Shown here piece after piece: positions 1 to 16,202 of a stretch of DNA of 16,969 bases. Under the pieces are notes generated by a model that had not been told where the DNA came from, made no database searches, and was given only the letters and a program-made list of their open reading frames with translations. A program made the position numbers and the translations under genes. Source of the DNA: a virus (lineage: Duplodnaviria; Heunggongvirae; Uroviricota; Caudoviricetes); IMG/VR virus record IMGVR_UViG_2663763054_000010; one strand, given 5' to 3'. The first letter of the stretch is position 1; every line of letters begins with the position of its first letter.

Positions 1-81
1 CAGCCTTCAGGGAAAAATATCATCAGATGGCTGCTTAAAAAAAGAACAAATGGTAGTGTCCGCTATTGCCAGTACACCTCA
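1..81 (+). mobile_element. IS3-family (IS600-like) element, right end only, cut by window start; carries the last 11 codons of orfB (3-38, ...AFREKYHQMAA, stop 36-38)
   Basis: 1-77 is the reverse complement of 12692-12770; element ends ...CCTCA at 81 (IS3-family TG...CA terminus). Confidence 0.75.
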
Positions 82-280
82 TCCATCACCGAAAAAAATT
101 GGCTTTTACACCATTGGCGATAAAAGCATTTACCTGTATGACCTACGCCGCATGGATGAAATCATGGAGGCTCTTGATAATCGTTCGTCGATGGATTGGT
201 GTGTTGCTGTTCATGATATGAATGCAGGGTTTGATGAAAAGATTTTGTTCCCCTCATCAGTTGAAAGCACTGCGGGTTAA
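50..280 (+). CDS. hypothetical protein; start uncertain because the ORF begins inside the IS end, so possibly 5'-truncated by the IS
   Basis: 76-aa ORF in track; ends just before the SD of the next ORF. Confidence 0.25.
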   Translation: MVVSAIASTPHPSPKKIGFYTIGDKSIYLYDLRRMDEIMEALDNRSSMDWCVAVHDMNAGFDEKILFPSSVESTAG

Positions 281-290
281 GGAGTAACAC

Positions 291-458
291 ATGACCACTA
301 TTACCAAAGAACGTATTGAATTGTTCATTAAAAACCCGCTTGAAAACGGGCTTACCCGTGGTGAACAAATGGAACTGGCACGGATTGCGCTGGCATCGCT
401 GGAAGCAGAGCCGGTTGTGTTCTGGTTTGAAAAATATCAAGAAGGGGCTACGGCATGA
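291..458 (+). CDS. small hypothetical prophage protein (55 aa, [12 protein letters not shown]...)
   Basis: AAGGAG 7 nt upstream of ATG 291; stop overlaps next start (ATGA at 455-458); below the ORF-track length cutoff. Confidence 0.45.
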
Positions 459-799
459 CGACTTTTACCAGAGAGCAGTTAATAGCTCACGCAGAGGAGA
501 CTATTGAAGCACAGAGACTGTGCATACCGGGCACAATCGACCATGACATCATCCGCACATATAAGATGGATATTGCTGTTCTGGAAATCGCACTGGTATC
601 GCTGGCAGCAGAGCCAGCCGGTAAATTGCATGAATACAAACCAGTGGGATATCAGCGTCTGGTCGATGAGTTAACCATGCTGGTAAAGCAGTTAACCTGG
701 CAACTGAGGAAAGCGAAGCCAGACTGCAAATTACCGGATAAGGCGATGAGTTATCTGGAGCGGAACGGACTGATAAGCGTGGAGGATATTTTACGATGA
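455..799 (+). CDS. hypothetical prophage protein (114 aa)
   Basis: ATG start, translationally coupled on both sides (ATGA overlaps); N-terminus [13 protein letters not shown] resembles ORF 5473-5715. Confidence 0.55.
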
Positions 800-879
800 C
801 CTGGCCTGAAGCATTAACAACGGTAGGAATTGCGATGGCGGTGGCGCTGGTGGTGTATTCGATTTGCCGCTGGGGATAA
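796..879 (+). CDS. small hydrophobic peptide (27 aa, [27 protein letters not shown])
   Basis: ATGA overlap with upstream stop; single predicted TM-like stretch. Confidence 0.3.
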
Positions 880-1090
880 AAACGGTTTGCGGGAAAAGGA
901 GAGTTAAGTAGAATTGCAGCGGGTGCTTGAGGCTATCTGTCTCAGGCATGAACACCAAAAGGCAGATAGAGAAAAGCCCCAGTTAACATTACGCGTCCGG
1001 CAAGACGCTTAACATTAATCTGAGGCTCAATCTATGAACGGCAAATCTAGGTTAGCCTCTTACGTGCCGAAAGGCAAGGAGAAGCAGGCT

Positions 1091-1246
1091 ATGAAGCAGC
1101 AAAAGGCGATGTTAATCGCCCTGATCGTCATCTGTTTAACCGTCATAGTGACGGCACTGGTAACGAGGAAAGACCTCTGCGAGGTACGAATTCGAACCGG
1201 CCAGACGGAGGTCGCTGTCTTCACAGCTTACGAACCTGAGGAGTAA
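1091..1246 (+). CDS. hokD: Hok/Gef-family type I toxin (51 aa), HokD/RelF-like
   Basis: MKQQKAMLIALIVICLTVIVTALVTRKDLCEVRIRTGQTEVAVFTAYEPEE matches Hok family architecture (TM helix + conserved C..R..G..EV.AF..YE); internal ATG of track ORF 1034-1246. Confidence 0.8.
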   Translation: MKQQKAMLIALIVICLTVIVTALVTRKDLCEVRIRTGQTEVAVFTAYEPEE

Positions 1247-1316
1247 GAGACCAGGCGGGGGAGAAATCCCTCGCCACCTCTGATGGGTCAGGCATCCTCA
1301 ATGCACCCACACTTAA

Positions 1317-1340
1317 CCCGCTTCGGCGGGTTTTTGTTTT
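1317..1340 (+). terminator. rho-independent terminator after hok (stem CCGC-UUCG-GCGG + T-tract)
   Basis: GC stem with UUCG tetraloop followed by TTTTTGTTTTT. Confidence 0.5.
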
Positions 1341-1466
1341 TATTTTCAACGCGTTTGAAGTTTTAGATGGTGCCGGAATAGAATCAAAAATACTTAAGTA
1401 GCGCGCAGGGAGAAGAGGGATGGACCCCGAACAGGGGAGTGCTATTTATCTGGAAGGATTCTGTTG

Positions 1467-1748
1467 ATGAAAATCGAAGAATTACGTGAAATTTTTAGTG
1501 AAGATGGCCTCTATACTGTGCGCGTTGAGAATGGCGCTATTGTCAGCCACTGCCTTCCAGACTACACAATTCTGATAATTCAGCCGTCTTTGCCAGCAGG
1601 CACGGGCGGCGCTCTCACGCATTTAAATCTGATTGGTACCAGCATCCCCCATGCACTGAAGAACAGGCCGAATGGCTCATTCAGTGTTACCGCAGGCGCG
1701 GATGCGAGGTTAAAAAAGCCCTTAGCCTCGACTACCGTCACTGGATAA
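1467..1748 (+). CDS. small prophage protein (93 aa); by position possibly Rem-like (recollection of Qin order hokD-rem-ydfU, not verified)
   Basis: ORF with ATG at 1467 (track starts at TTG 1464); identical copy at 7722-8003. Confidence 0.5.
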   Translation: MKIEELREIFSEDGLYTVRVENGAIVSHCLPDYTILIIQPSLPAGTGGALTHLNLIGTSIPHALKNRPNGSFSVTAGADARLKKPLASTTVTG

Positions 1749-1823
1749 TCTCCGTCAGGCTCCCTTACTCCGAACGGCCAACGCGTCCGTCCCGCACATT
1801 CCAGCAACGGATCTGGAGGTAAT

Positions 1824-2882
1824 GTGCGGGTATTACTTCGACCTGTTCTGGTACCGGAACTCGGTCTGGTTATCGTTAAGCCAGGCCGTGAATCAATGTC
1901 AGCATTCCATAACGGCAGAATACTGGTGGAGCCGGAACCAAAAAGCATGCGTAATCTGCCGTCCGGGGTCGTTCCTGCCGCTCGCCAGCCGCTGGTGGAA
2001 GACAAAACATTGCTGCCGTTTTTCAGTAACGCACGGGTGATTCGTGCTGCTGGTGGTGCTGGTGCATTGTCTGACTGGCTGTTGCGCCATATTAAATCCT
2101 GCCAGTGGCCACACGGCGATTATCATCACAGCGAAACCGTCATTCACCGTTATGGTACCGGCGCAATGGTGTTGTGCTGGCACTGCGACAACCAGCTGCG
2201 TGACCAGACATCCGAATCACTCGAGCAACTTGCTCATCAAAACCTGTCAGCATGGATGATTGACGTCATCGGTCACGCAATAAGCGGTACGCAGGAGCGT
2301 GAATTATCTCTGGCTGAATTATCCTGGTGGGCGGTCCGCAATCAGGTGGCGGACGCGCTACCGGAAGCGGTATTACGTCGTTCGCTGGGGTTGCGTGCGG
2401 AAAAAATTCGCTCTGTGTACAGTGAAAGCGACATCATACCGGGAGAGCAGACAGCCACCAGCATACTGAAGCAGCGCACAAAAAATATTGCGTTACTGCC
2501 TCACGTCCACCAGCAACAGAACCCACCACAGGAAAAGACGGTGGTCAGCATTGCCGTTGATCCGGAGTCACCGGCTCAGTATCTCCAGCGCCAGAAATCA
2601 CAACGGGAAGAGATGCCTGTATACACGCGCTGGGTAAAAACGCAGAAATGCATGACGTGTGGCAATCAGGCAGATGATCCGCATCACATCATTGGTCATG
2701 GACTGGGAGGGATGGGAACAAAGGCTGATGATTTGTTTGTTATTCCGTTATGCCGTAAATGCCGTAACGAACTACATGCCGGAGTAAAAGATTTTGAAGA
2801 GAAACACGGCAGTCAGCTGTTGTTGCTGATTCGTTTTTTAATGCACGCGAGAAATTCGGGTGTTCTGAAGTGGAAAGCATAA
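1824..2882 (+). CDS. YdfU-like (DUF968-type) prophage protein with C-terminal HNH-like zinc-finger nuclease motif
   Basis: GTG start 4 nt after GGAGG; C-terminus CMTCGNQADDPHHIIGHGLGG...PLCRKCRNELH (CxxC...HH...CxxC...H). Confidence 0.65.
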   Translation: MRVLLRPVLVPELGLVIVKPGRESMSAFHNGRILVEPEPKSMRNLPSGVVPAARQPLVEDKTLLPFFSNARVIRAAGGAGALSDWLLRHIKSCQWPHGDYHHSETVIHRYGTGAMVLCWHCDNQLRDQTSESLEQLAHQNLSAWMIDVIGHAISGTQERELSLAELSWWAVRNQVADALPEAVLRRSLGLRAEKIRSVYSESDIIPGEQTATSILKQRTKNIALLPHVHQQQNPPQEKTVVSIAVDPESPAQYLQRQKSQREEMPVYTRWVKTQKCMTCGNQADDPHHIIGHGLGGMGTKADDLFVIPLCRKCRNELHAGVKDFEEKHGSQLLLLIRFLMHARNSGVLKWKA

Positions 2883-3263
2883 ATGACCGAGCGCATAGAA
2901 TTTGTTTTACCTTACCCGCCGACGGTGAACACTTACTGGCGTCGTCGTGGCAGCACATATTTTGTATCAAAAGCCGGGGAGCGTTATCGCCGGGCAGTGG
3001 CGCTTATTGTTCGCCAGCAGCGGCTGAAATTAAGCCTGTCCGGAAGGTTGGCAATAAAAATTATTGCAGAACCACCGGATAAGCGCCGCCGTGACCTGGA
3101 CAATATTCTGAAAGCGCCGCTGGATGCGCTGACGCATGCGGGGTTGCTAATGGACGATGAGCAGTTTGATGAAATCAATATCGTTCGTGCTCAGCCAGTA
3201 TCTGGTGGACGTCTGGGGGTGAAGATTTATCCCATAATGCTTGAAGGGCAGGTCAAAAAATGA
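2883..3263 (+). CDS. rusA: RusA-family Holliday junction resolvase (variant a)
   Basis: ATG immediately after upstream TAA; RusA signature ...PPDKRRRDLDNILKAPLDALTHAGLLMDDEQ... Confidence 0.85.
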   Translation: MTERIEFVLPYPPTVNTYWRRRGSTYFVSKAGERYRRAVALIVRQQRLKLSLSGRLAIKIIAEPPDKRRRDLDNILKAPLDALTHAGLLMDDEQFDEINIVRAQPVSGGRLGVKIYPIMLEGQVKK

Positions 3264-4006
3264 AACTGGAAGATTTACCGAAATACTACTCCCCAAAATC
3301 CCCCGGCCTGACTGATGCATCGGCCTCAACGTCGAAAGATGCGCTGAGTATCACTGATGTGATGGCCGCGCAGGGCATGACACAGAATCGGGCTGAGATG
3401 GGGGTTTCTGCGTTCCTTGGGAAAATGGGCATTAGTATGAATGACAGAGAGCGGGCAACAGAATTGCTGACAGAATATGCACTCAGTCGGTGTGATCGCG
3501 TGGCGGCGTTAAGAAAACTCCCGGCAGAAATAAAACCGGCAGTGATGCGTATTATGGCTTCGTATGCGTTTGAAGATTATGCCCGTAGCGCGGCGAGCAA
3601 AAAACAGTGCCCCTGCTGTCACGGAAAAAAATTTATTGAAAGCGAGGTTTTTACAAACAAGATCCAGTATCCGGATGGTAAGCCGCCGGTATGGGCAAAG
3701 TGTACGAAAGGTGTGTATCCGTCTTACTGGGAAGAATGGAAAAAAGTCAGGGAGGTGGTAAAAGTTGCCTGTCCGGAGTGTGGCGGAAAGGGTGAGGTTT
3801 CCACCGCCTGTAAGGATTGCCGTGGGCGTGGTGTCGCCATTCATCGTGAAGAGTCGGTAAAACGTGGTATGCCTGTTATCAGAGACTGCCAGCGTTGTGG
3901 TGGTCGTGGCTATGAAAGACTACCATCAACGGAGGCATTTAATGCTATATGCGAGGTGACAAACCAGATAACACGCGCGTCATGGGAAAAAACAGTTAAG
4001 AAATTA
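3260..4006 (+). pseudogene. Q-like late antiterminator (variant a), 3' end replaced by IS2 after codon ~249; track ORF 3260-4093 has an IS-derived tail
   Basis: Identical to 9515-10261 then diverges at the IS2 terminus TGGATTTGCCCC (4007). Confidence 0.7.
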
Positions 4007-4017
4007 TGGATTTGCCC

Positions 4018-4923
4018 CTATATTTCCAGACATCTGTTATCACTTAACCCATTACAAGCCCGCTGCCGCAGATATTCCCGTGGCGAGCGATAACCCAGCG
4101 CACTATGCGGATGCCATTCGTTATAATGCTCGAACGCCTCTGCAAGGTTCTTTGCTGCCGTTAACCCGTCTGGTTTGGGCATGATACTGATGTAGTCACG
4201 CTTTATCGTTTTCACGAAGCTCTCTGCTATTCCGTTACTCTCCGGACTCCGCACCGCCGTGTTCTTCGGTTCAAGTCCCAACATCCGGGCGAACTGGCGT
4301 GTTTCATTAGCCCGGTAGCATGAACCATTATCCGTCAGCCACTCCACTGGAGACGACGGAAGATCGTTGCCGAAGCGGCGTTCCACCGCTCCCAGCATGA
4401 CGTCCTGTACTGTTTCACTGTTGAAGCCGCCGGTAGTCACCGCCCAGTGCAGTGCCTCACGATCACAGCAGTCCAGCGCGAACGTGACACGCAGTCTCTC
4501 TCCGTTATCACAGCAGAACTCGAACCCGTCAGAGCACCATCGCTGATTGCTTTCTTTCACGGCCACTCTGCCTGTATGTGCCCGTTTCGATGGCGGTACA
4601 GCAGGTTTTCGCTCAAGCAACAGCGCATTCTGGCGCATGATCCGGTAAACACGTTTGGCATTGATCGCAGGCATACCATCAAGTTCTGCCTGTCTGCGAA
4701 GCAGCGCCCATACCCGACGATAACCATACGTGGGCAGCTCTCCGATAACATGGTGTATACGGAGAAGCACATCCGTATCATCAGTGTGACGACTGCGGCG
4801 GCCATCCATCCAGTCATCGGTTCGTCTGAGAATGACGTGCAACTGCGCACGCGACACCCGGAGACAACGGCTGACTAAGCTTACTCCCCATCCCCGGGCA
4901 ATAAGGGCGCGTGCGCTATCCAC
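4018..4923 (-). CDS. insD: IS2 transposase OrfB (InsD), 301 aa
   Basis: Protein [34 protein letters not shown]... matches recalled IS2 InsD. Confidence 0.9.
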
Positions 4924-5246
4924 TTTTTTGCCCGTCCATATTCAACGGCTTCTTTGAGGAGTTCATTTTCCATCGTTTTCTTGCCGAGCAGGCGCTGGAG
5001 TTCTTTAATCTGCTTCATGGCGGCAGCAAGTTCAGAGGCAGGAACAACCTGTTCTCCGGCGGCGACAGCAGTAAGACTTCCTTCCTGGTATTGCTTACGC
5101 CAGAGAAATAACTGGCTGGCTGCTACACCATGTTGCCGGGCAACGAGGGAGACCGTCATCCCCGGTTCAAAGCTCTGCTGAACAATTGCGATCTTTTCCT
5201 GTGTGGTACGCCGTCTGCGTTTCTCCGGCCCTAAGACATCAATCAT
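4881..5246 (-). CDS. insC: IS2 OrfA (InsC), 121 aa
   Basis: [24 protein letters not shown]... from internal ATG of track ORF 4881-5291. Confidence 0.85.
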
Positions 5247-5472
5247 CTGTACTCCAATGACTAGTCTAAAAACTAGTATTAAGACTATCACTTATTTAAG
5301 TGATACTGGTTGTCTGGAGATTCAGGGGGCCAGTCTACGGACATTTTCTGCCTGTGGACCAGGAAAGTGCACGGGTGCTTTCCACTCCCATGAAGCCCGG
5401 CAATCCGCGCAGATACAGTAATAAACGAACTGACAGCAGTAAGATGGAGCGTTTCTTTTGAACAACCAGACA

Positions 5473-5715
5473 ATGACTTTTACCTCTGAACAATTGCGTA
5501 AACACGCGCAGGAAATGCTGCGTCATGCTGAACAACTCGAAAAAACGGGCATAACAAAAGACGCTATCCGTAAAGATATGGTACCCGCGCTTCGGGAACT
5601 GATGCAGGCGAAGCATCGCGCACAGAAAGCAGTAGATGAGCTGGTGGACTGTGTGGCAGAGCTGGAAACCAGAGTCGGAAAGTTTGAAAAACTGGTGCAG
5701 GAGGTGCTGCGCTGA
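5473..5715 (+). CDS. hypothetical prophage protein (~80 aa, MTFTSEQLRKHAQEM...)
   Basis: ATG at 5473 (track begins at TTG 5458); stop overlaps rusA start; paralog-like N-terminus shared with 455-799. Confidence 0.5.
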   Translation: MTFTSEQLRKHAQEMLRHAEQLEKTGITKDAIRKDMVPALRELMQAKHRAQKAVDELVDCVAELETRVGKFEKLVQEVLR

Positions 5716-6089
5716 TGCGCCATGAGTTTATTTTACCTTATCCGCCGACGGTGAATACTTACTGGCGACGTCGTGACAACACATATTTTGTATCAAAAGC
5801 CGGTGAGCGTTATCGCCGGGATGTGGCGCTTATTGTCCGTCAGCAGCGACTGAAATTAAGCCTGTCCGGAAGACTGGCGATAAAGATTATTGCAGAGCCA
5901 CCGGATAAGCGCCGTCGTGACCTGGACAATATCCTGAAAGCACCACTGGATGCACTGACACATGCGGGAGTGTTAATGGACGATGAGCAGTTTGATGAAA
6001 TCAATATCGTTCGTGCTCAGCCAGTATCTGGTGGACGTCTGGGGGTGAAGATTTACCCCATAATGCATGAAGAGCAGGTCAAAAAATGA
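5715..6089 (+). CDS. rusA: RusA-family Holliday junction resolvase (variant b)
   Basis: 124 aa, same signature as 2883-3263 but divergent N-terminus (MRHEFILPYPP). Confidence 0.85.
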   Translation: MRHEFILPYPPTVNTYWRRRDNTYFVSKAGERYRRDVALIVRQQRLKLSLSGRLAIKIIAEPPDKRRRDLDNILKAPLDALTHAGVLMDDEQFDEINIVRAQPVSGGRLGVKIYPIMHEEQVKK

Positions 6090-6907
6090 AACTGGAAGAT
6101 TTACCGAAATACTACTCCCCAAAATCCCCTTGCCTGACCGATGCATCGGCCTCAACGTCAAAAGATGCGCTGAGTATCACTGATGTGATGGCCGCGCAGG
6201 GCATGACACAGAATCGGGCTGAGATGGGGTTTTCTGCGTTCCTGGGGAAAATGGGCATCAGTATGAATGACAGGGCGCGGGCAACAGAATTACTGGCAGA
6301 TTATGCACTCAGTCGGTGCGATCGTGTGGCGGCGTTGAGAAAACTTCCGGCAGAAATAAAACCGGTAGTGATGCGCATTATGGCTTCGTACGCTTTTGAG
6401 GATTATGCCCGCAGCGCAGCGAGTAAAAAGCAGTGCCCTTGTTGCTATGGGGAAAAATTTATTGAAAGCGTAGTTTTTACAAACAAGGTCCAGTATCCGG
6501 ATGGTAAGCCGCCGGTATGGGCAAAGTGTACGAAAGGTGTGTATCCGTCTTACTGGGAAGAATGGAAAAAAGTCAGGGAGGTGGTAAAAGTTGCCTGTCC
6601 GGAGTGTGGCGGAAAGGGTGAGGTTTCCACCGCCTGTAAGGATTGCCGTGGGCGTGGTGTCGCCATTCATCGTGAAGAGTCGGTAAAACGTGGTATGCCT
6701 GTTATCAGAGACTGCCAGCGTTGTGGTGGTCGTGGCTATGAAAGACTACCATCAACGGAGGCATTTAATGCTATATGCGAGGTGACAAACCAGATAACAC
6801 GCGCGTCATGGGAAAAAACAGTTAAGAAATTTTATGATGCGCTGGTGACCCGGTTTGATATTGAAGAAGCATGGGCTGAGCGGCAGTTAAAAAAGGTAAC
6901 TAGGTAA
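6086..6907 (+). CDS. Q-like late antiterminator (variant b), 273 aa with CxxC zinc-finger repeats
   Basis: ATGA overlap with rusA; CPCC..CPECGGKG..CKDCRGRG..CQRCGGRG motifs; followed by promoter + short terminator (PR'/tR' layout). Confidence 0.65.
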   Translation: MKLEDLPKYYSPKSPCLTDASASTSKDALSITDVMAAQGMTQNRAEMGFSAFLGKMGISMNDRARATELLADYALSRCDRVAALRKLPAEIKPVVMRIMASYAFEDYARSAASKKQCPCCYGEKFIESVVFTNKVQYPDGKPPVWAKCTKGVYPSYWEEWKKVREVVKVACPECGGKGEVSTACKDCRGRGVAIHREESVKRGMPVIRDCQRCGGRGYERLPSTEAFNAICEVTNQITRASWEKTVKKFYDALVTRFDIEEAWAERQLKKVTR

Positions 6908-6912
6908 CAAGG

Positions 6913-6940
6913 TTGATTTTTCCGGAATCTGTGGTAAATT
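6913..6940 (+). promoter_or_regulatory. candidate late promoter PR' (TTGATT-16 nt-TAAATT) just downstream of Q
   Basis: sigma70-like hexamers; position matches lambdoid Q/qut/PR' organisation; copies at 10342-10369 and 14901-14928. Confidence 0.35.
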
Positions 6941-6989
6941 CGTCATAACGATGGGCGTTTTATGCCTGACGTTAGAAGAGTTTCTACAA

Positions 6990-7012
6990 CCCGCCGCCGA
7001 GCGGGTTTTTTA
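6990..7012 (+). terminator. tR'-like rho-independent terminator (CCCGC-loop-GCGGG + T6)
   Basis: GC-rich hairpin plus TTTTTT about 45-60 nt downstream of the candidate PR'. Confidence 0.6.
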
Positions 7013-7131
7013 TGACTGAAATCGCGTCAGTACAGTAAACGCGCTGGTGGCGGTGAATACCTGTCTTTCAGCTTGCTGGCTTTTTCGACAAGAGTTATTG
7101 GTGTGTCACGTTAACCGGAAAAGGAAAAGAC

Positions 7132-7329
7132 ATGCTAAAACAGCAGGATATGACAGAAACCGCCAGAGTGGTGTTTAATGAATTAAGCGTTACCGAACCG
7201 GCGACAGTCGGGGAGATAGCGCAGAATACTTACCTTTCACGCGAACGCTGCCAGTTAATACTGACCCAGCTGGTTATGGCGGGTCTGGCAGACTATCAGT
7301 TCGGTTGTTACAGACGCCTTCCGCAGTGA
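7132..7329 (+). CDS. small protein (65 aa), possibly helix-turn-helix-like (weak guess)
   Basis: AAAGGAAAAG RBS before ATG; stop inside terminator hairpin; identical copy at 10561-10758. Confidence 0.45.
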   Translation: MLKQQDMTETARVVFNELSVTEPATVGEIAQNTYLSRERCQLILTQLVMAGLADYQFGCYRRLPQ

Positions 7330-7340
7330 AGGCTTTTTTA
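7316..7340 (+). terminator. rho-independent terminator (GCCTTC-loop-GAAGGC + T6)
   Basis: Perfect 6-bp stem followed by TTTTTT; copy at 10745-10769. Confidence 0.55.
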
Positions 7341-7479
7341 TTTGTGGTAAATGGGCGGCTGGTGGGTGTTAGGGGCACCCACCAGCCATCTGCTCATGCG
7401 TTGGGTTCACAAGCAAACCTCAGGCCCACTGCTTTGCGCAAAAGCAGAATGAGCCTATCAGAGACAGGCTTAATGATCC

Positions 7480-7585
7480 ATGCTTAATACTGTAAAAATA
7501 TCCAGTTGTGAGTTAATCAACGCCGACTGCCTGGAATTTATCCGGTCGTTACCCGAAAATTCTGTTGACCTGATAGTCACGGACC
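7480..7585 (+). pseudogene. 5' fragment (first 35 codons) of the DPPY DNA methyltransferase, cut at a duplication junction
   Basis: Identical to 10909-11014 then switches at 7586 to sequence identical to 1332 onward. Confidence 0.75.
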
Positions 7586-7721
7586 ATTTTGTTTTTATTT
7601 TCAACGCGTTTGAAGTTTTAGATGGTGCCGGAATAGAATCAAAAATACTTAAGTAGCGCGCAGGGAGAAGAGGGATGGACCCCGAACAGGGGAGTGCTAT
7701 TTATCTGGAAGGATTCTGTTG

Positions 7722-8003
7722 ATGAAAATCGAAGAATTACGTGAAATTTTTAGTGAAGATGGCCTCTATACTGTGCGCGTTGAGAATGGCGCTATTGTCA
7801 GCCACTGCCTTCCAGACTACACAATTCTGATAATTCAGCCGTCTTTGCCAGCAGGCACGGGCGGCGCTCTCACGCATTTAAATCTGATTGGTACCAGCAT
7901 CCCCCATGCACTGAAGAACAGGCCGAATGGCTCATTCAGTGTTACCGCAGGCGCGGATGCGAGGTTAAAAAAGCCCTTAGCCTCGACTACCGTCACTGGA
8001 TAA
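7722..8003 (+). CDS. small prophage protein, copy of 1467-1748
   Basis: Identical protein. Confidence 0.5.
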   Translation: MKIEELREIFSEDGLYTVRVENGAIVSHCLPDYTILIIQPSLPAGTGGALTHLNLIGTSIPHALKNRPNGSFSVTAGADARLKKPLASTTVTG

Positions 8004-8078
8004 TCTCCGTCAGGCTCCCTTACTCCGAACGGCCAACGCGTCCGTCCCGCACATTCCAGCAACGGATCTGGAGGTAAT

Positions 8079-9137
8079 GTGCGGGTATTACTTCGACCTG
8101 TTCTGGTACCGGAACTCGGTCTGGTTATCGTTAAGCCAGGCCGTGAATCAATGTCAGCATTCCATAACGGCAGAATACTGGTGGAGCCGGAACCAAAAAG
8201 CATGCGTAATCTGCCGTCCGGGGTCGTTCCTGCCGCTCGCCAGCCGCTGGTGGAAGACAAAACATTGCTGCCGTTTTTCAGTAACGCACGGGTGATTCGT
8301 GCTGCTGGTGGTGCTGGTGCATTGTCTGACTGGCTGTTGCGCCATATTAAATCCTGCCAGTGGCCACACGGCGATTATCATCACAGCGAAACCGTCATTC
8401 ACCGTTATGGTACCGGCGCAATGGTGTTGTGCTGGCACTGCGACAACCAGCTGCGTGACCAGACATCCGAATCACTCGAGCAACTTGCTCATCAAAACCT
8501 GTCAGCATGGATGATTGACGTCATCGGTCACGCAATAAGCGGTACGCAGGAGCGTGAATTATCTCTGGCTGAATTATCCTGGTGGGCGGTCCGCAATCAG
8601 GTGGCGGACGCGCTACCGGAAGCGGTATTACGTCGTTCGCTGGGGTTGCGTGCGGAAAAAATTCGCTCTGTGTACAGTGAAAGCGACATCATACCGGGAG
8701 AGCAGACAGCCACCAGCATACTGAAGCAGCGCACAAAAAATATTGCGTTACTGCCTCACGTCCACCAGCAACAGAACCCACCACAGGAAAAGACGGTGGT
8801 CAGCATTGCCGTTGATCCGGAGTCACCGGCTCAGTATCTCCAGCGCCAGAAATCACAACGGGAAGAGATGCCTGTATACACGCGCTGGGTAAAAACGCAG
8901 AAATGCATGACGTGTGGCAATCAGGCAGATGATCCGCATCACATCATTGGTCATGGACTGGGAGGGATGGGAACAAAGGCTGATGATTTGTTTGTTATTC
9001 CGTTATGCCGTAAATGCCGTAACGAACTACATGCCGGAGTAAAAGATTTTGAAGAGAAACACGGCAGTCAGCTGTTGTTGCTGATTCGTTTTTTAATGCA
9101 CGCGAGAAATTCGGGTGTTCTGAAGTGGAAAGCATAA
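8079..9137 (+). CDS. YdfU-like protein with HNH-like motif, copy of 1824-2882
   Basis: Identical protein. Confidence 0.65.
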   Translation: MRVLLRPVLVPELGLVIVKPGRESMSAFHNGRILVEPEPKSMRNLPSGVVPAARQPLVEDKTLLPFFSNARVIRAAGGAGALSDWLLRHIKSCQWPHGDYHHSETVIHRYGTGAMVLCWHCDNQLRDQTSESLEQLAHQNLSAWMIDVIGHAISGTQERELSLAELSWWAVRNQVADALPEAVLRRSLGLRAEKIRSVYSESDIIPGEQTATSILKQRTKNIALLPHVHQQQNPPQEKTVVSIAVDPESPAQYLQRQKSQREEMPVYTRWVKTQKCMTCGNQADDPHHIIGHGLGGMGTKADDLFVIPLCRKCRNELHAGVKDFEEKHGSQLLLLIRFLMHARNSGVLKWKA

Positions 9138-9518
9138 ATGACCGAGCGCATAGAATTTGTTTTACCTTACCCGCCGACGGTGAACACTTACTGGCGTCGT
9201 CGTGGCAGCACATATTTTGTATCAAAAGCCGGGGAGCGTTATCGCCGGGCAGTGGCGCTTATTGTTCGCCAGCAGCGGCTGAAATTAAGCCTGTCCGGAA
9301 GGTTGGCAATAAAAATTATTGCAGAACCACCGGATAAGCGCCGCCGTGACCTGGACAATATTCTGAAAGCGCCGCTGGATGCGCTGACGCATGCGGGGTT
9401 GCTAATGGACGATGAGCAGTTTGATGAAATCAATATCGTTCGTGCTCAGCCAGTATCTGGTGGACGTCTGGGGGTGAAGATTTATCCCATAATGCTTGAA
9501 GGGCAGGTCAAAAAATGA
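9138..9518 (+). CDS. rusA: RusA-family resolvase (variant a), second copy
   Basis: Identical to 2883-3263. Confidence 0.85.
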   Translation: MTERIEFVLPYPPTVNTYWRRRGSTYFVSKAGERYRRAVALIVRQQRLKLSLSGRLAIKIIAEPPDKRRRDLDNILKAPLDALTHAGLLMDDEQFDEINIVRAQPVSGGRLGVKIYPIMLEGQVKK

Positions 9519-10336
9519 AACTGGAAGATTTACCGAAATACTACTCCCCAAAATCCCCCGGCCTGACTGATGCATCGGCCTCAACGTCGAAAGATGCGCT
9601 GAGTATCACTGATGTGATGGCCGCGCAGGGCATGACACAGAATCGGGCTGAGATGGGGGTTTCTGCGTTCCTTGGGAAAATGGGCATTAGTATGAATGAC
9701 AGAGAGCGGGCAACAGAATTGCTGACAGAATATGCACTCAGTCGGTGTGATCGCGTGGCGGCGTTAAGAAAACTCCCGGCAGAAATAAAACCGGCAGTGA
9801 TGCGTATTATGGCTTCGTATGCGTTTGAAGATTATGCCCGTAGCGCGGCGAGCAAAAAACAGTGCCCCTGCTGTCACGGAAAAAAATTTATTGAAAGCGA
9901 GGTTTTTACAAACAAGATCCAGTATCCGGATGGTAAGCCGCCGGTATGGGCAAAGTGTACGAAAGGTGTGTATCCGTCTTACTGGGAAGAATGGAAAAAA
10001 GTCAGGGAGGTGGTAAAAGTTGCCTGTCCGGAGTGTGGCGGAAAGGGTGAGGTTTCCACCGCCTGTAAGGATTGCCGTGGGCGTGGTGTCGCCATTCATC
10101 GTGAAGAGTCGGTAAAACGTGGTATGCCTGTTATCAGAGACTGCCAGCGTTGTGGTGGTCGTGGCTATGAAAGACTACCATCAACGGAGGCATTTAATGC
10201 TATATGCGAGGTGACAAACCAGATAACACGCGCGTCATGGGAAAAAACAGTTAAGAAATTTTATGATGCGCTGGTGACCCGGTTTGATATTGAAGAAGCA
10301 TGGGCTGAGCGGCAGTTAAAAAAGGTAACTAGGTAA
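9515..10336 (+). CDS. Q-like late antiterminator (variant a), intact 273 aa
   Basis: Same as 3260-4006 then continues with the native C-terminus ...KKFYDALVTRFDIEEAWAERQLKKVTR. Confidence 0.65.
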   Translation: MKLEDLPKYYSPKSPGLTDASASTSKDALSITDVMAAQGMTQNRAEMGVSAFLGKMGISMNDRERATELLTEYALSRCDRVAALRKLPAEIKPAVMRIMASYAFEDYARSAASKKQCPCCHGKKFIESEVFTNKIQYPDGKPPVWAKCTKGVYPSYWEEWKKVREVVKVACPECGGKGEVSTACKDCRGRGVAIHREESVKRGMPVIRDCQRCGGRGYERLPSTEAFNAICEVTNQITRASWEKTVKKFYDALVTRFDIEEAWAERQLKKVTR

Positions 10337-10418
10337 CAAGGTTGATTTTTCCGGAATCTGTGGTAAATTCGTCATAACGATGGGCGTTTTATGCCTGACG
10401 TTAGAAGAGTTTCTACAA

Positions 10419-10441
10419 CCCGCCGCCGAGCGGGTTTTTTA
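10419..10441 (+). terminator. tR'-like terminator (copy of 6990-7012)
   Basis: Same hairpin + T-tract. Confidence 0.6.
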
Positions 10442-10560
10442 TGACTGAAATCGCGTCAGTACAGTAAACGCGCTGGTGGCGGTGAATACCTGTCTTTCAG
10501 CTTGCTGGCTTTTTCGACAAGAGTTATTGGTGTGTCACGTTAACCGGAAAAGGAAAAGAC

Positions 10561-10758
10561 ATGCTAAAACAGCAGGATATGACAGAAACCGCCAGAGTGG
10601 TGTTTAATGAATTAAGCGTTACCGAACCGGCGACAGTCGGGGAGATAGCGCAGAATACTTACCTTTCACGCGAACGCTGCCAGTTAATACTGACCCAGCT
10701 GGTTATGGCGGGTCTGGCAGACTATCAGTTCGGTTGTTACAGACGCCTTCCGCAGTGA
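10561..10758 (+). CDS. small protein, copy of 7132-7329
   Basis: Identical protein. Confidence 0.45.
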   Translation: MLKQQDMTETARVVFNELSVTEPATVGEIAQNTYLSRERCQLILTQLVMAGLADYQFGCYRRLPQ

Positions 10759-10908
10759 AGGCTTTTTTATTTGTGGTAAATGGGCGGCTGGTGGGTGTTA
10801 GGGGCACCCACCAGCCATCTGCTCATGCGTTGGGTTCACAAGCAAACCTCAGGCCCACTGCTTTGCGCAAAAGCAGAATGAGCCTATCAGAGACAGGCTT
10901 AATGATCC

Positions 10909-11967
10909 ATGCTTAATACTGTAAAAATATCCAGTTGTGAGTTAATCAACGCCGACTGCCTGGAATTTATCCGGTCGTTACCCGAAAATTCTGTTGACCT
11001 GATAGTCACGGACCCGCCGTACTTTAAAGTGAAGCCTGAGGGCTGGGATAACCAGTGGAAGGGCGACGATGATTACCTGAAGTGGCTGGACCAGTGTCTG
11101 GCGCAGTTCTGGCGGGTGCTGAAACCTGCCGGAAGTCTTTACCTGTTCTGTGGTCATCGCCTGGCATCTGATATCGAAATCATGATGCGTGAACGCTTCA
11201 GTGTGCTGAACCATATTATCTGGGCGAAGCCGTCCGGACGCTGGAACGGATGCAACAAGGAAAGCCTGCGGGCGTATTTCCCCGCCACAGAGCGCATTCT
11301 GTTCGCGGAACATTATCAGGGGCCGTATCGTCCGAAAGATGCCGGGTATGCGGCGAAGGGCAGTGCACTGAAACAGCATGTGATGGCCCCGCTGATTTCT
11401 TACTTTCGTGATGCGCGAGCTGCCCTGGGGATAACGGCAAAACAGATTGCAGATGCCACAGGAAAGAAAAACATGGTGTCGCACTGGTTCAGTGCCGGTC
11501 AGTGGCAGTTGCCGAATGAAAGCGATTATCTGAAATTACAGGCGCTGTTTGCCCGGGTGGCAGAAGAGAAGCATCGGCGTGGTGAACTGGAAAAGCTCCA
11601 CCACCAGCTGGTGGATACGTATACCTCACTGAACCGGCAGTATGCGGAGCTGCTGAGTGAATATAAACATCTGCGGCGGTATTTTGGCGTGACGGTGCAG
11701 GTGCCGTATACCGATGTGTGGACGCATAAACCGGTGCAGTTCTATCCCGGGAAACATCCGTGCGAAAAACCGGCAGAAATGCTGCAGCAGATAATCAGCG
11801 CTAGCAGTCGTCCGGGTGACCTGATTGCAGATTTTTTCATGGGGTTGGGTTCGACAGTGAAAGCGGCACTGGCGCTCGGGCGTCGTGCAATTGGCGTTGA
11901 GCTGGAGACTGAACGTTTTGAGCAGACGGTTCGGGAAGTACAGGATTTAGTCAGCCAGAACGGATGA
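10909..11967 (+). CDS. DNA methyltransferase, DPPY (N6-adenine/N4-cytosine) type with beta-class motif order; no cognate endonuclease seen (orphan)
   Basis: Motif IV DLIVTDPPYF near N-terminus, motif I DLIADFFMGLGST near C-terminus. Confidence 0.8.
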   Translation: MLNTVKISSCELINADCLEFIRSLPENSVDLIVTDPPYFKVKPEGWDNQWKGDDDYLKWLDQCLAQFWRVLKPAGSLYLFCGHRLASDIEIMMRERFSVLNHIIWAKPSGRWNGCNKESLRAYFPATERILFAEHYQGPYRPKDAGYAAKGSALKQHVMAPLISYFRDARAALGITAKQIADATGKKNMVSHWFSAGQWQLPNESDYLKLQALFARVAEEKHRRGELEKLHHQLVDTYTSLNRQYAELLSEYKHLRRYFGVTVQVPYTDVWTHKPVQFYPGKHPCEKPAEMLQQIISASSRPGDLIADFFMGLGSTVKAALALGRRAIGVELETERFEQTVREVQDLVSQNG

Positions 11968-12007
11968 TATTGAAGAATTAATTACGCGTCGTTATTATGC
12001 GGCTCCC

Positions 12008-12083
12008 GGCCCTTTAGCTCAGTGGTGAGAGCGAGCGACTCATAATCGCCAGGTCGCTGGTTCAAATCCAGCAAGGGCCACCA
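12008..12083 (+). tRNA. tRNA with CAU anticodon, tRNA-Ile2 (lysidine) type, ileX/ileZ-like
   Basis: Cloverleaf: acceptor GGCCCTT/AAGGGCC, anticodon loop CTCATAA, T-loop TTCAAAT, CCA end. Confidence 0.85.
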
Positions 12084-12090
12084 TCACATA

Positions 12091-12167
12091 CCGCCATTAG
12101 CTCATCAGGAAAGAGCGCCAGCCTTCGAAGCTGGCTGCGCGGGGTTCAAGTCCCCGATGGCGGTCCA
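12091..12167 (+). tRNA. tRNA-Arg, anticodon UCG as read
   Basis: Acceptor CCGCCAT/ATGGCGG, anticodon stem CCAGC/GCTGG with loop CTTCGAA, T-loop TTCAAGT, CCA end. Confidence 0.75.
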
Positions 12168-12180
12168 TTATCTGCATCAT

Positions 12181-12257
12181 GCGTTGTTAGCTCAGCCGGA
12201 CAGAGCAATTGCCTTCTAAGCAATCGGTCACTGGTTCGAATCCAGTACAACGCGCCA
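12181..12257 (+). tRNA. tRNA-Arg, anticodon UCU (reads rare AGA)
   Basis: Acceptor GCGTTGT/ACAACGC, anticodon loop CTTCTAA, T-loop TTCGAAT, CCA end. Confidence 0.85.
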
Positions 12258-12271
12258 CACTTATTTTCCCA

Positions 12272-12300
12272 GGCTCGCTTTTGCGGGCCTTTTTTTTAAA
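12272..12300 (+). terminator. rho-independent terminator after tRNA cluster
   Basis: AGGCTCGC-TTTT-GCGGGCCT stem (one mismatch) followed by T8. Confidence 0.5.
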
Positions 12301-12514
12301 TGTCTCACAATTCAGACGGTTGACAGTTGTCTGTTTTGCGGGGAGTTTGTTAAAAGAAACTGGCATGGTGAATCCCCCTGTGCGGAGGGGCAATCAGCGA
12401 GTAGGTATATGGGATAATCGCGGATTCAGGTGCTGGTACTGAATTCACCGGGAGGCACCCGGCATCATGCAATGGCACATAGCGCCACTCTCCAGCCCTC
12501 TCCGGAGGGGCTTT
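12293..12514 (+). other. conserved ~215-bp structured non-coding element, copy 1; candidate sRNA or leader ending in a hairpin
   Basis: Near-identical to 15947-16170; several GC stems; no ORF conserved between copies. Confidence 0.3.
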
Positions 12515-12744
12515 TCTGTGCCGGATACATCACAGTTTCTGGAACCTTAGGTACTACAGTATCAGTCAGGGTGCTATATTTTCAGATGTGATGAAAGCCT
12601 GTCAGCAGGCAGGGCGTATCGGAAATGACCCAGTAGAGAAAACGTTGACTCAGATACCGGTGCTGAGTTACCGGGAAACCGGCATCACATGACCGCTATC
12701 CTGAGGTGTACTGGCAATAGCGGACACTACCATTTGTTCTTTTT

Positions 12745-13563
12745 TTAAGCAGCCATCTGATGATATTTTTCCCTGAAGGCTGCCGGGGAGATATTCCCCA
12801 GACGAGAGTGACGACGCTGACGATTGTAGAAAATCTCAATGTATTCCCGTATTACTGAGATGGCTTCATCCCGGTTATTAAAACGATAGTGGCTCAGGCT
12901 CTCATTTTTCAGCGTTCCCCAGAAGCTTTCCATCGGAGCGTTGTCGTAACAGTTACCTTTACGCGACATTGATGTTTTCAGACCAGACTGCTCCTGTATG
13001 ACCCGGTAATCGTATGCGCAGTACTGTGAACCTCGATCAGAGTGGTGGATTAGCCCGGCAGGTGGGCGCTGGCTCCTGAGCGCCATAAACAGGGCTTTAC
13101 CTGTCAGCTCTTTTGTCATGCGCTCTCCCATGGCGTAGCCGACAATTTCGCACGTATAAACATCTTTGATGCCAGCGAGGTACAACCATCCCTCCTGTGT
13201 GGCAACATACGTCAGGTCCGCCACCCAGACCTGATTTGGTGCTGTAGGAGCGAACGTCTGGTTCAGCAGATTTGGCGCAACTGGCAGATTGTGGTTCGAG
13301 TTCGTAGTCGCTCTGAACTTGCGTTTCTGCTTACAGCGTAGCCTTAGCTCCTTACGAAGACGTGCCAGTCGGTCACGACCAACGATGATGCCATTCTCTG
13401 CCAGCTCCGTCTGGAGCCGCCGGGTTCCATATGTTTCGCGAGTGCGGATATGTGCCACCTTAATCTCCAGTTTTAGCCGCTCATCACTTTGTTTTCTGTC
13501 TGAGGGTTCATGCTGTACCCAGTTGTAATAACCGCTCCTGGATACACCAAATACCTGACACAT
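12745..13563 (-). CDS. IS3-family transposase OrfB (DDE integrase-like), 272 aa from first in-frame Met
   Basis: Recalled IS3-family OrfB features; normally expressed as an OrfAB frameshift fusion. Confidence 0.85.
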   Translation of the reverse strand: MCQVFGVSRSGYYNWVQHEPSDRKQSDERLKLEIKVAHIRTRETYGTRRLQTELAENGIIVGRDRLARLRKELRLRCKQKRKFRATTNSNHNLPVAPNLLNQTFAPTAPNQVWVADLTYVATQEGWLYLAGIKDVYTCEIVGYAMGERMTKELTGKALFMALRSQRPPAGLIHHSDRGSQYCAYDYRVIQEQSGLKTSMSRKGNCYDNAPMESFWGTLKNESLSHYRFNNRDEAISVIREYIEIFYNRQRRHSRLGNISPAAFREKYHQMAA

Positions 13564-13598
13564 CGCTTCAATGGGAAATTGTTGTCGCCATTGTTCGA

Positions 13599-13842
13599 TT
13601 AACGCGTATTTTTCAGCGACTCCTGTGCAAAATACGCTGTTGCTTTTTTTAATATATCTCGCTCAAGGCGAGCTTCATTTAACGCCTTACGCAGTTGCAG
13701 AATTTCAGATTCCAGTTCAGCCACCGTGCGGGAACCAGGAGTACCGAGCCCTTTTCTGGCGGCGGTAACCCATTGTCCTAAAGTGCCTTCAGGAAGAGAT
13801 AATCGGGAAGCGCCTTCACTGATCGAAAGTTGATTTTCAAAG
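13599..13842 (-). pseudogene. IS3-family OrfA, C-terminal part only (...ENQLSISEGASRLSLPEG...ILKKATAYFAQESLKNTR)
   Basis: Track ORF 13599-14000 is chimeric: 3' part is orfA, 5' part is antisense rusA. Confidence 0.7.
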
Positions 13843-14084
13843 CGACTGAAATTAAGCCTGTCCGGAAGACTGGCGATAAAGATTATTGCAGAGCCACCGG
13901 ATAAGCGCCGTCGTGACCTGGACAATATCCTGAAAGCACCACTGGATGCACTGACACATGCGGGAGTGTTAATGGACGATGAGCAGTTTGATGAAATCAA
14001 TATCGTTCGTGGTCAGCCAGTATCTGGTGGACGTCTGGGGGTGAAGATTTACCCCATAATGCATGAAGAGCAGGTCAAAAAATG
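13843..14084 (+). pseudogene. rusA: rusA (variant b) 3' fragment, lacking about the first 44 codons
   Basis: Matches 5848-6089 with one substitution (RAQPV to RGQPV); upstream replaced by the IS. Confidence 0.8.
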
Positions 14085-14936
14085 AAACTGGAAGATTTAC
14101 CGAAATACTACTCCCCAAAATCCCCTTGCCTGACCGATGCATCGGCCTCAACGTCAAAAGATGCGCTGAGTATCACTGATGTGATGGCCGCGCAGGGCAT
14201 GACACAGAATCGGGCTGAGATGGGGTTTTCTGCGTTCCTGGGGAAAATGGGCATCAGTATGAATGACAGGGCGCGGGCAACAGAATTACTGGCAGATTAT
14301 GCACTCAGTCGGTGCGATCGTGTGGCGGCGTTGAGAAAACTTCCGGCAGAAATAAAACCGGTAGTGATGCGCATTATGGCTTCGTACGCTTTTGAGGATT
14401 ATGCCCGCAGCGCAGCGAGTAAAAAGCAGTGCCCTTGTTGCTATGGGGAAAAATTTATTGAAAGCGTAGTTTTTACAAACAAGGTCCAGTATCCGGATGG
14501 TAAGCCGCCGGTATGGGCAAAGTGTACGAAAGGTGTGTATCCGTCTTACTGGGAAGAATGGAAAAAAGTCAGGGAGGTGGTAAAAGTTGCCTGTCCGGAG
14601 TGTGGCGGAAAGGGTGAGGTTTCCACCGCCTGTAAGGATTGCCGTGGGCGTGGTGTCGCCATTCATCGTGAAGAGTCGGTAAAACGTGGTATGCCTGTTA
14701 TCAGAGACTGCCAGCGTTGTGGTGGTCGTGGCTATGAAAGACTACCATCAACGGAGGCATTTAATGCTATATGCGAGGTGACAAACCAGATAACACGCGC
14801 GTCATGGGAAAAAACAGTTAAGAAATTCTATGATGCGCTGGTGACTCGGTTTGATATTGAAGAAGCATGGGCTGAGCGGCAGTTAAAAAAGGTAACTAGG
14901 TTGATTTTTCCGGAATCTGTGGTAAATTCGTCATAA
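14082..14936 (+). CDS. Q-like late antiterminator (variant b), 284 aa; an 8-bp deletion removes the normal stop and adds an 11-aa tail
   Basis: Same as 6086-6907 apart from a few substitutions; ...AGGTAACTAGGTAACAAGGTTG becomes AGGTAACTAGGTTG; ORF runs through the PR' -35/-10. Confidence 0.6.
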   Translation: MKLEDLPKYYSPKSPCLTDASASTSKDALSITDVMAAQGMTQNRAEMGFSAFLGKMGISMNDRARATELLADYALSRCDRVAALRKLPAEIKPVVMRIMASYAFEDYARSAASKKQCPCCYGEKFIESVVFTNKVQYPDGKPPVWAKCTKGVYPSYWEEWKKVREVVKVACPECGGKGEVSTACKDCRGRGVAIHREESVKRGMPVIRDCQRCGGRGYERLPSTEAFNAICEVTNQITRASWEKTVKKFYDALVTRFDIEEAWAERQLKKVTRLIFPESVVNSS

Positions 14937-14977
14937 CTATGGGCGTTTTATGCCTGACGTTAGAAGAGTTTCTACAA

Positions 14978-15000
14978 CCCGCCGCCGAGCGGGTTTTTTA
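14978..15000 (+). terminator. tR'-like terminator (third copy)
   Basis: CCCGC-loop-GCGGG + T6. Confidence 0.6.
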
Positions 15001-15038
15001 TTGCGGAATTAATTACGGACCGTTATTATTCTGCTCCC

Positions 15039-15114
15039 GGCCCTTTAGCTCAGTGGTGAGAGCGAGCGACTCATAATCGCCAGGTCGCTGGTTCAAATCC
15101 AGCAAGGGCCACCA
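15039..15114 (+). tRNA. tRNA (CAU), Ile2-type, second copy
   Basis: Identical to 12008-12083. Confidence 0.85.
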
Positions 15115-15121
15115 TCACAAA

Positions 15122-15201
15122 CCGCCATTAGCTTATCAGGAAGAGCAGACGACACGATAACAGGGTTGTTGGTGCGGGGGCGGGTCCCCGATGGCGGTCC
15201 A
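15122..15201 (+). pseudogene. degenerate tRNA (tRNA-Arg-like ends, anticodon arm and T-loop disrupted)
   Basis: Acceptor and D-arm as in 12091-12167, but the middle has no anticodon stem and the T-loop is GCGGGT. Confidence 0.55.
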
Positions 15202-15214
15202 TTATCGGTATTCA

Positions 15215-15291
15215 GCGTTGTTAGCTCAGCCGGACAGAGCAATTGCCTTCTAAGCAATCGGTCACTGGTTCGAATCCAGTACAGCGCGCCA
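15215..15291 (+). tRNA. tRNA-Arg (UCU), second copy, with one acceptor-stem change giving a U-G pair
   Basis: Same as 12181-12257 except ACAGCGC for ACAACGC. Confidence 0.8.
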
Positions 15292-15401
15292 TATTCATTC
15301 TTCCAGATTCCTTCCGGCAGAGCCTTATACTGAAATATACCTGGCTCAGGATATTGTTGAAAATATTTTATGTTTGTCAAAAATAAAAGTTCTGTTAAGT
15401 A

Positions 15402-15755
15402 TTGATTGAGTGTTTGTTATACGGTCTAATGGTTTTTTCAGCATTAAATATTTATCATTCATATGGTGTGGGTAGAGTGAATATTGATGAGGCGTCGGGG
15501 TGTTTCATCCTTAGGCAGCGTATTGATATAGTCAATGCAGCACGAGCAAAGGCCTTCAGCCGTTTGACAGTTTTGTTCTGTACTCCTGATCGTCTTTCGG
15601 GAAGAGACGTTATTATTCTGAATAGTGATGCTATACAGAGGGTTTGCGATGAGTTCATGGTTGCTAATTCAGAATTATTTGCTCTTGTTCAGGAGTACAA
15701 CAGAATAGCCAGGACCTGTGGTATGGATGAACTTCGGATTACTCATCTGGGGTAG
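15402..15755 (+). CDS. hypothetical protein in AT-rich cargo region; start codon uncertain (track start is TTG)
   Basis: 117-aa ORF; no recognisable motif. Confidence 0.3.
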   Translation: MIECLLYGLMVFSALNIYHSYGVGRVNIDEASGCFILRQRIDIVNAARAKAFSRLTVLFCTPDRLSGRDVIILNSDAIQRVCDEFMVANSELFALVQEYNRIARTCGMDELRITHLG

Positions 15756-15946
15756 ATACATATCTGGATTATCACCTGTTACGGTAAAAAGTGATTGCTT
15801 ACTGTTTTTGTGAATGGCATTGCAGCAGCCGGATAATGTCAGTGCTGGCTGACGGTGTGCTGGTGGCGGGTGTGGTGGTTGTTGCTTTCCCGTTGCTGAA
15901 AAAGAAAACGCCAGACTGTTAGCCGGGTATCAGTTAGCGGGAGAAA

Positions 15947-16170
15947 TTTTTAAATACTTCACAATTCAGGCGGTTGACTGTTGTCTGGTTTGCGGGGAGT
16001 TTGTTAAAAGAAACTGGCATGGTGAATCCCCCTGTGCGGAGGGGCAATCAGCGAGTAGGTATATGGGATAATCGCGGATTCAGGTGCTGGTACTGAATTC
16101 ACCGGGAGGCACCCGGCACCATGCAATGGCACATAGCGCCACTCTCCAGCCCCTCTCCGGAGGGGCTGTT
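15947..16170 (+). other. conserved structured non-coding element, copy 2
   Basis: Aligns to 12293-12514 with scattered substitutions; ends in perfect hairpin AGCCCCTC-TCCG-GAGGGGCT. Confidence 0.3.
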
Positions 16171-16202
16171 TATATTGATTTTGTCAGATGTGAGTAAACT
16201 CC

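Follow-up and report, generated by a model that had tools for sequence, protein, structure and literature searches.

The window analysed here, that is, the whole stretch of 16,969 nucleotides in a record of a tailed virus (Caudoviricetes; IMGVR_UViG_2663763054_000010), carries genes for Q-type antiterminators, designated copies A to D. Copies B, C and D are each accompanied by a compact arrangement of a promoter (PR'), a pause element and a terminator (tR'). The features that concern us are the following.

3260-4005, + strand: Q gene, copy A, interrupted by IS2 at 4005/4006, with no PR'-tR' after it
6086-6907, + strand: Q gene, copy B, 273 aa, intact, with matches to PF03589 and 7ubm
6905-6907, + strand: stop codon (TAA) of Q copy B, 5 nt before the -35 hexamer
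6913-6940, + strand: putative PR' of copy B, with -35 TTGATT at 6913-6918, a 16-nt spacer at 6919-6934, presumed to hold a Q-binding element, and -10 TAAATT at 6935-6940
T6932 and G6933, + strand: extended -10 of copy B, the spacer ending in TGG (TGn)
6947-6955, + strand: predicted start (A6947) and sigma70-dependent pause element AACGAT plus GGG of copy B, assigned by identity to lambda PR'
6947-7012, + strand: predicted terminated PR' transcript of copy B, 65-67 nt, made up of a 5' hairpin (6947-6973), an unpaired A/G-rich segment (6974-6987) and the terminator
6988-7011, + strand: tR' of copy B, with the stem-loop AACCCGC-CGCCGA-GCGGGTT at 6988-7007 and a T run at 7006-7011
9515-10336, + strand: Q gene, copy C, 273 aa, intact
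10342-10441, + strand: PR'-pause-tR' of copy C, with -35 at 10342-10347, -10 at 10364-10369, pause element at 10376-10381 and terminator at 10417-10436
14082-14936, + strand: Q gene, copy D, 284 aa, its original stop codon lost and 11 residues (LIFPESVVNSS) added at the C terminus
14901-15000, + strand: PR'-pause-tR' of copy D, with -35 at 14901-14906, -10 at 14923-14928, pause element AACTAT at 14935-14940 and terminator at 14976-14995

Judged by their sequences, the Q proteins of the window belong to the lambda Q family. Copy B Q matches PF03589 (Pfam, E=6e-55), which has been assigned to the Q-lambda family (PMC9388147), as well as the Q-lambda loading complex in PDB 7ubm (E=1.5e-40, residues 1-113 and 182-273 aligned), and its gene is 99% identical at the nucleotide level to the Q gene of phage mEp460_ev081. 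The exact copy C protein occurs in Shigella sonnei assemblies, adjoining ompW in most among those listed. Relative to lambda Q, the copy B protein has an insertion of roughly 66 aa, encoded at 6425-6630 (residues about 114-181), with a DnaJ-like CXXCXGXG and extra CXXC zinc-finger motifs; it lies at the start of the DNA-contacting “arm” and is present in the other Q copies too. The QuuQ type of Q, 250 aa long and 44% identical to the 273-aa protein, has a shorter form of it. Given this zinc-finger insertion, Q loading may differ from that of lambda Q. Experiments on a Q type with this insertion were absent from the literature searched, and the literature on quuQ, ydfT, qO111 and the Stx pR' region held nothing specific to this promoter type.

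A Q cassette has been defined as the Q gene, PR', a sigma-dependent pause element, a terminator and late genes (PMC9388147). The preliminary description placed a Q-proximal promoter and terminator in three copies at 6913-7012, 10342-10441 and 14901-15000, and both the sequence and a repeat finder bear these coordinates out: the copy C segment (10331-10449) is 100% identical to that of copy B (6902-7020), and the copy D segment (14890-15008) is 96% identical. The copy B terminator hairpin has a 7-bp stem with 5 G-C pairs, a 6-nt loop and a T6 tract (-11.2 kcal/mol), and it is among the top-ranking sites in a terminator scan of the window. A short terminated RNA is predicted, as had been proposed, but at 65-67 nt rather than about 60; the copy B transcript folds at -21.4 kcal/mol (z = -2.2).

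The promoter hexamers agree with the consensus at 8 of 12 positions, and a generic scan omits the site because this falls short of its threshold of 9/12. That scan found 14 promoter-like sites in the window against 19 expected, with no enrichment, and the PR' hexamers taken alone are not significant. The composite of TAAATT-N6-AACGATGGG is far beyond chance, with three matches in the window, one of them carrying a mismatch, where 200 shuffles lead one to expect 0.00. This composite is also that of lambda. The lambda PR' reads TTGACT-17-TAAATT-TGACTC-AACGATGGGTTAATT and the window PR' reads TTGATT-16-TAAATT-CGTCAT-AACGATGGGCGTTTT, so that the two agree fully in the -10 TAAATT, in the length of the gap (6 nt) and in AACGATGGG at +1 to +9. 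The AACGAT of lambda is a -10-like element that holds sigma70, and it is at the promoter-proximal pause there that Q loads.

Each copy is thus very probably a lambda-type prophage late-gene cassette, comprising a constitutive sigma70 promoter PR', a pause element, a presumed Q-binding element in the spacer and tR'. The PR'/qut/tR' layout suggested earlier is borne out on several sides: a lambda-family Q lies upstream, the -10 and pause element, spaced alike, are those of lambda PR', the arrangement recurs behind two divergent Q subtypes, and a homologous terminator in K-12 coincides with an RNA 3' end. By analogy with lambda, RNA polymerase would start at A6947 (10376 and 14935 in copies C and D), and sigma70 would re-bind AACGAT on the non-template strand, holding the polymerase near +16/+17 (T17-G18; ~6962-6963). 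The terminator lies about 40 nt past the pause element at +1 to +6. When Q is lacking, the polymerase would escape, terminate at tR' and release the 65-67-nt RNA; when Q is present, it would load on the paused complex, perhaps by way of the spacer, and allow read-through of tR' into orf65, the methylase, the tRNAs and STnc100. Activity of PR' in the present host is likewise a prediction from this analogy.

Comparison across genomes and phages places the cassette in a family with two subtypes. Subtype I, to which the window belongs, follows the 273-aa Q and has TTGATT-16-TAAATT; subtype II follows the 250-aa Q and has TTGCAT-17 with TAAGAT, TAAAAT or TAGGAT. Of 5426 complete E. coli genomes, 2500 have the 121-nt element of subtype I, none in more than 4 copies, and 2424 have the subtype II cassette, about 45% for each subtype. 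Subtype I is also found in mEp460-like phages and the Stx2a phage Stx2_EH1910, and subtype II, after a QuuQ-type Q, in the Qin prophage of K-12, phage SfV, a Salmonella phage and others. A scan of genome contigs found the pause-to-terminator pattern in the species representatives of E. coli, E. albertii and S. flexneri only, and it was not found beyond Escherichia/Shigella among 185,579 species representatives. Four viral-contig matches to this pattern were set aside as GC-rich chance matches.

The 12 distinct variants that were aligned show which parts of the cassette are held constant. The core AACGATGGGC-TT-TAT----CGTT is nearly invariant, and the terminator hairpin is common to both subtypes; in the two variants of the pause element that were seen, AATGAT (mEp460) and AACTAT (copy D), A2 and T6, which are the key -10 positions, are retained. 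Spacers of one subtype are almost unchanging, and those of the two subtypes differ, whereas the 6 nt after the -10 vary freely, as do positions +28 to +41. Such spacer conservation is the pattern expected of a Q-binding element, as in lambda, and suggests that Q may bind there. The cassette is of an ordinary and known kind, very common in E. coli and Shigella, of which this member is new and uncharacterised, and recognising it is of use chiefly for annotation. Its PR', pause site and tR' are without annotation in the E. coli records inspected, and only in the phage SfV record is the homologous site marked, as a putative rho-independent terminator.

The terminator itself has a wider distribution than the promoter. 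A close version of the hairpin stands behind an unrelated 126-aa Q in the Stx2a phage EH2201, and it is from the hairpin onward that this phage is homologous to the window. In the same way, window positions 6988-7585 match 1501-2101 of locus L014, and other Stx2a phages with the 126-aa Q, at 94-96% identity from tR' through orf65 and the DNA methylase. This onset of homology at the tR' hairpin points to a mosaic joint between a Q-specific promoter and pause part and a generic module of tR' plus late region. Some Stx2a phages, Stx2_EH1910 for example, carry the Q/PR' type of the window and not the one linked to the small RNA StxS; toxin control in these phages, and any by-product RNA, would thus differ from the O157 Sakai model.

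Evidence that the terminator is used in vivo comes from the Qin homologue in K-12. Its start, placed in the same way as A6947, is predicted at 1642422 on the minus strand. The Term-seq data of Adams et al. include an “orphan” 3' end at 1642356 (minus), within ...AAAACCCGCTGATGAGCGGGTTTTGTGC (PMC7815308, supplementary file 1), 67 nt from the predicted start (NC_000913.3; 5357-5423 in locus L004). The file, which covers three growth conditions, lists this end three times; two of the rows give average read counts of 103,591 and 55,368, comparable to sokC (PMC7815308). No annotated gene corresponds to the RNA ending there. A 3' end at the homologous site means that the terminator works and that an abundant RNA ends there in uninduced cells; 5'-end data for any member of the cassette were not found in the supplements of the Cappable-seq paper and Kim 2012. 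The relic late promoter of Qin, through its tR' product, can account for the orphan end at 1642356, which offers a testable candidate in the best-studied bacterium.

What the short RNA might do is a separate question, and one that is compatible with the cassette function. The preliminary description had suggested that the terminated transcript can act as a regulatory sRNA, with StxS as a precedent, and the reference to StxS is accurate: it is a PR' transcript, ended at tR' in lysogeny and encoded directly after Q, of 258 nt, processed by RNase E to 74 nt, whose 74-nt 3' fragment holds the seed that activates rpoS (PMC7547250). StxS binds Hfq, targets rpoS and stx1B, and tracks a 144-aa Q (PMC7547250). 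A dose effect from several copies, as also proposed, would be reasonable, because the two StxS gene copies contribute roughly equally (PMC7547250). The 6S RNA of lambda is likewise Hfq-associated and present in lysogens. With these two precedents, the 65-nt RNA could be a trans-acting, Hfq-dependent regulator or a sponge for host sRNAs. The RNA has a U6 terminator after an unpaired AGAAGAG (AAGAAAAAGUAGAAAA in K-12) that resembles the ARN motifs bound at the distal face of Hfq, the 3' end of its K-12 homologue is abundant across the growth conditions sampled, and the table derived from RIL-seq by Bar et al. (2021) has an entry, cspF.ydfT.IGR, with 70 chimeric fragments and 2 partners on Hfq.

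Other evidence weighs against such a role. For the RIL-seq entry the sRNA score is 0.0024, and the entry takes the first place in every chimera, as a target would; it is also strand-ambiguous, in an intergenic region that holds ynfS as well. The only plausible seed, the unpaired and ARN-like A/G-rich segment at +28 to +41, shows the lowest conservation in the family, whereas the conserved part, +1 to +27, is paired and accounted for by the pause element. RNAalifold gives a consensus of the 5' hairpin (+1 to +27) and the terminator for the 12 variants, with 0 compensatory changes in 16 pairs, and covariation thus neither backs nor contradicts the structure. No Rfam match reached the gathering score over 6900-7020, 10330-10450 or 14890-15010, or at homologous sites in four other loci. 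A blastn-short comparison with the Q-to-tRNA region of Sakai Sp5 gave only a 24-nt match to a hairpin in the 5' part (E=0.007), and against lambda 6S the 9-nt pause element was the sole match, with nothing beyond +9. ArcZ and the uhpT 3'UTR were considered as the two partners, on the numbers in Bar 2021, and pairing with ArcZ was rejected: duplexfold, a crude method, gave z from 0.07 to 2.2, in the wrong direction and no better than shuffles.

The claim that the terminated transcript is a regulatory sRNA is therefore left unsupported, with no StxS homology, Rfam family or covariation and with the most variable segment being the unpaired one, and we consider a trans-acting role for it unlikely. 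Most likely, the late-gene switch yields the short RNA as a by-product. A bolder proposal, that PR'-tR' RNAs form a widespread, unannotated family of constitutive 65-67-nt prophage RNAs acting in trans as Hfq-associated regulators or host-sRNA sponges, is decidedly doubtful as well. If it were true, target sets would differ between prophage lineages on account of the variable unpaired middle, and the dose would be greater in multi-copy hosts such as the present one.

Less probable again, and in our judgment quite improbable, is that the hairpin simply terminates the Q (early-right) transcript, with fortuitous hexamers and no separate short transcript. Such a reading would sit well with hexamers that reach 8/12 and fail the generic scan, with the lack of TSS evidence in the sources searched, and with a terminator module that is common to phages with unrelated Q genes and hence not specific to this promoter. 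It would leave unexplained why lambda PR' and the window agree in -10, spacing and 9-nt pause element, and why these are conserved behind Q subtypes only 44% identical; moreover, the abundant K-12 3' end in ordinary culture, where Qin is cryptic, fits a constitutive promoter nearby better. A leaderless micropeptide of 22 codons (MGVLCLTLEEFLQPAAERVFYD) from the ATG at 6951 hardly merits consideration: although this ATG lies at +5 and its frame stays open through the terminator to a TGA at 7017-7019, it belongs to the pause element AACGATGGG, lacks a Shine-Dalgarno sequence and opens a frame that crosses the terminator stem, and indels among variants change the frame and length (18 codons in N32, 38 in K-12, 2 in lambda), such that coding potential was rejected for an ORF conserved in neither.

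The late-gene cassette thus remains the preferred reading for all three copies, and within it copy D presents a variation. Relative to copy B, the copy D segment has an 8-bp deletion (AGGTAACA), which sits between AGGT repeats and removes the Q stop, and one G-to-T change. The Q frame is thereby extended through the -35 and -10 to a stop at 14934-14936, on the predicted start site (14935), and the 284-aa protein ends in ...VTR-LIFPESVVNSS. It had been noted that the fourth-module copy lies partly inside an extended Q frame; this is so for the promoter, which is within the ORF at 14082-14936, but not for the RNA itself. The exact 284-aa Q was found in 1407 index blocks of a public collection, with S. 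sonnei 53G among the places listed, and is thus not private to the window but widespread in S. sonnei assemblies. In lambda, the C-terminal residues of Q refold onto the nozzle of the RNA exit channel, and substitutions there abolish antitermination; since the lambda Q C terminus is essential in this way, the extension may impair copy D Q.

Most of the window maps almost perfectly onto two separate prophage loci of S. sonnei, as follows.

1-4005: 100% identity to the S. sonnei locus with the copy C Q allele, beside ompW in most of the assemblies listed
7587-13840: 99.95% identity to the same S. sonnei locus of the copy C Q allele
13841-16969: 99.97% identity to a second S. sonnei prophage locus, near an ipaH-type effector gene

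Positions 5179-7585 are a third, E. coli-like copy; IS2 begins at 4007, and IS600 lies at 12687-13840 and at both ends of the window. Neither joint, 7585/7586 or 13840/13841, coincides with an IS end, and homology is lacking at both. Exact-protein searches with the two junction ORFs had no match. Joint 7585/7586 is found in 0 of 5426 complete E. coli genomes, and the tandem three-copy layout was not seen in any S. sonnei assembly or other assembly examined. Positions 1332-4005 are repeated at 7587-10260 (2674 bp at 100% identity), and the offsets from 1332 to 7587 (6255 bp) and from 7587 to 13841 (6254 bp) are nearly equal, an observation for which we offer no explanation. The window, as a patchwork of two S. 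sonnei prophage loci and a third copy, may reflect a genuine rearrangement or an artefact of assembly. More than one copy in a genome is normal, with as many as 4 in E. coli and two loci in S. sonnei; three within 8 kb are uncorroborated.

Several neighbours of the cassettes deserve mention in their own right. From 6947 to 10336 all genes are on the + strand, and polymerase modified by Q at the copy B PR' would pass through orf65, a truncated methylase, DUF968 and RusA to copy C Q; such an order would in principle allow a positive feedback loop from Q to PR' to Q. Phage tRNA clusters follow tR' at 12008-12257 (+; Met(cat), Arg(tcg) and Arg(tct), after copy C) and 15039-15291 (+; Met(cat) and Arg(tct), after copy D), the same tRNA set that precedes stx2 in Stx2 phages, and the window has no stx gene. 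Beyond the tRNAs, at the “moron” site of the late region, the Rfam sRNA STnc100 occurs twice, at 12334-12523 and 15988-16177 (+; 132 and 124 bits), and in the loci compared it lies at 4415-4605 (L012) and 3268-3434 (L002). Tree et al. 2014 reportedly placed anti-sRNAs of the AsxR/AgvB type at this late-region site. The sRNA-17 of E. coli K1 (193 nt, from an mEp460-like prophage) was considered and is not the cassette element; it is probably the downstream STnc100. A hok/sok type I toxin-antitoxin locus lies at 921-1096 and 1034-1246 (+; Rfam sok 112 bits, with a Hok-family ORF), and an IraM/PmrD-like anti-adaptor gene at 16203-16538 (-).

Comparison with systems already described helps to place the cassette. 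With StxS it shares the kind of product predicted, a PR'-to-tR' transcript directly after Q, and the occurrence of more than one prophage copy per genome. StxS is linked to a 144-aa Q, whereas the window has lambda-family Q proteins of 273 or 284 aa, and the one sequence resemblance is between this tR' and a terminator-like hairpin that the Sp5 transcript has close to its 5' end (21/24 nt). K-12 Qin and phage SfV are members of the cassette family itself and have in common with the window both AACGATGGGC-TT-TAT----CGTT and the AACCCGC...GCGGGTT terminator, in subtype II form. They differ in a Q of 250 aa (44% identical), in TTGCAT-17-TAAAAT or TAAGAT, and in the middle of the RNA; the order of Q, terminator, 65-aa ORF and DNA methylase in SfV is that of window copies B and C.

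The differences from lambda are several. Lambda has TTGACT with a 17-nt spacer, the window TTGATT with a 16-nt spacer and a true TGn extended -10; the spacer is unlike that of lambda, with no clear similarity to the lambda Q-binding element, and the zinc-finger insertion of the window Q is absent from lambda Q. The lambda 6S RNA is 194 nt long, the RNA predicted here 65-67 nt, and the two lack similarity past +9. The downstream orf65 was considered as a homologue of lambda orf-64 and rejected for want of homology; the two are unrelated. Set beside these differences is a common plan: a PF03589 Q, a cassette directly after the Q gene, a -10 and pause element at the same spacing, and an intrinsic terminator ahead of the late genes.
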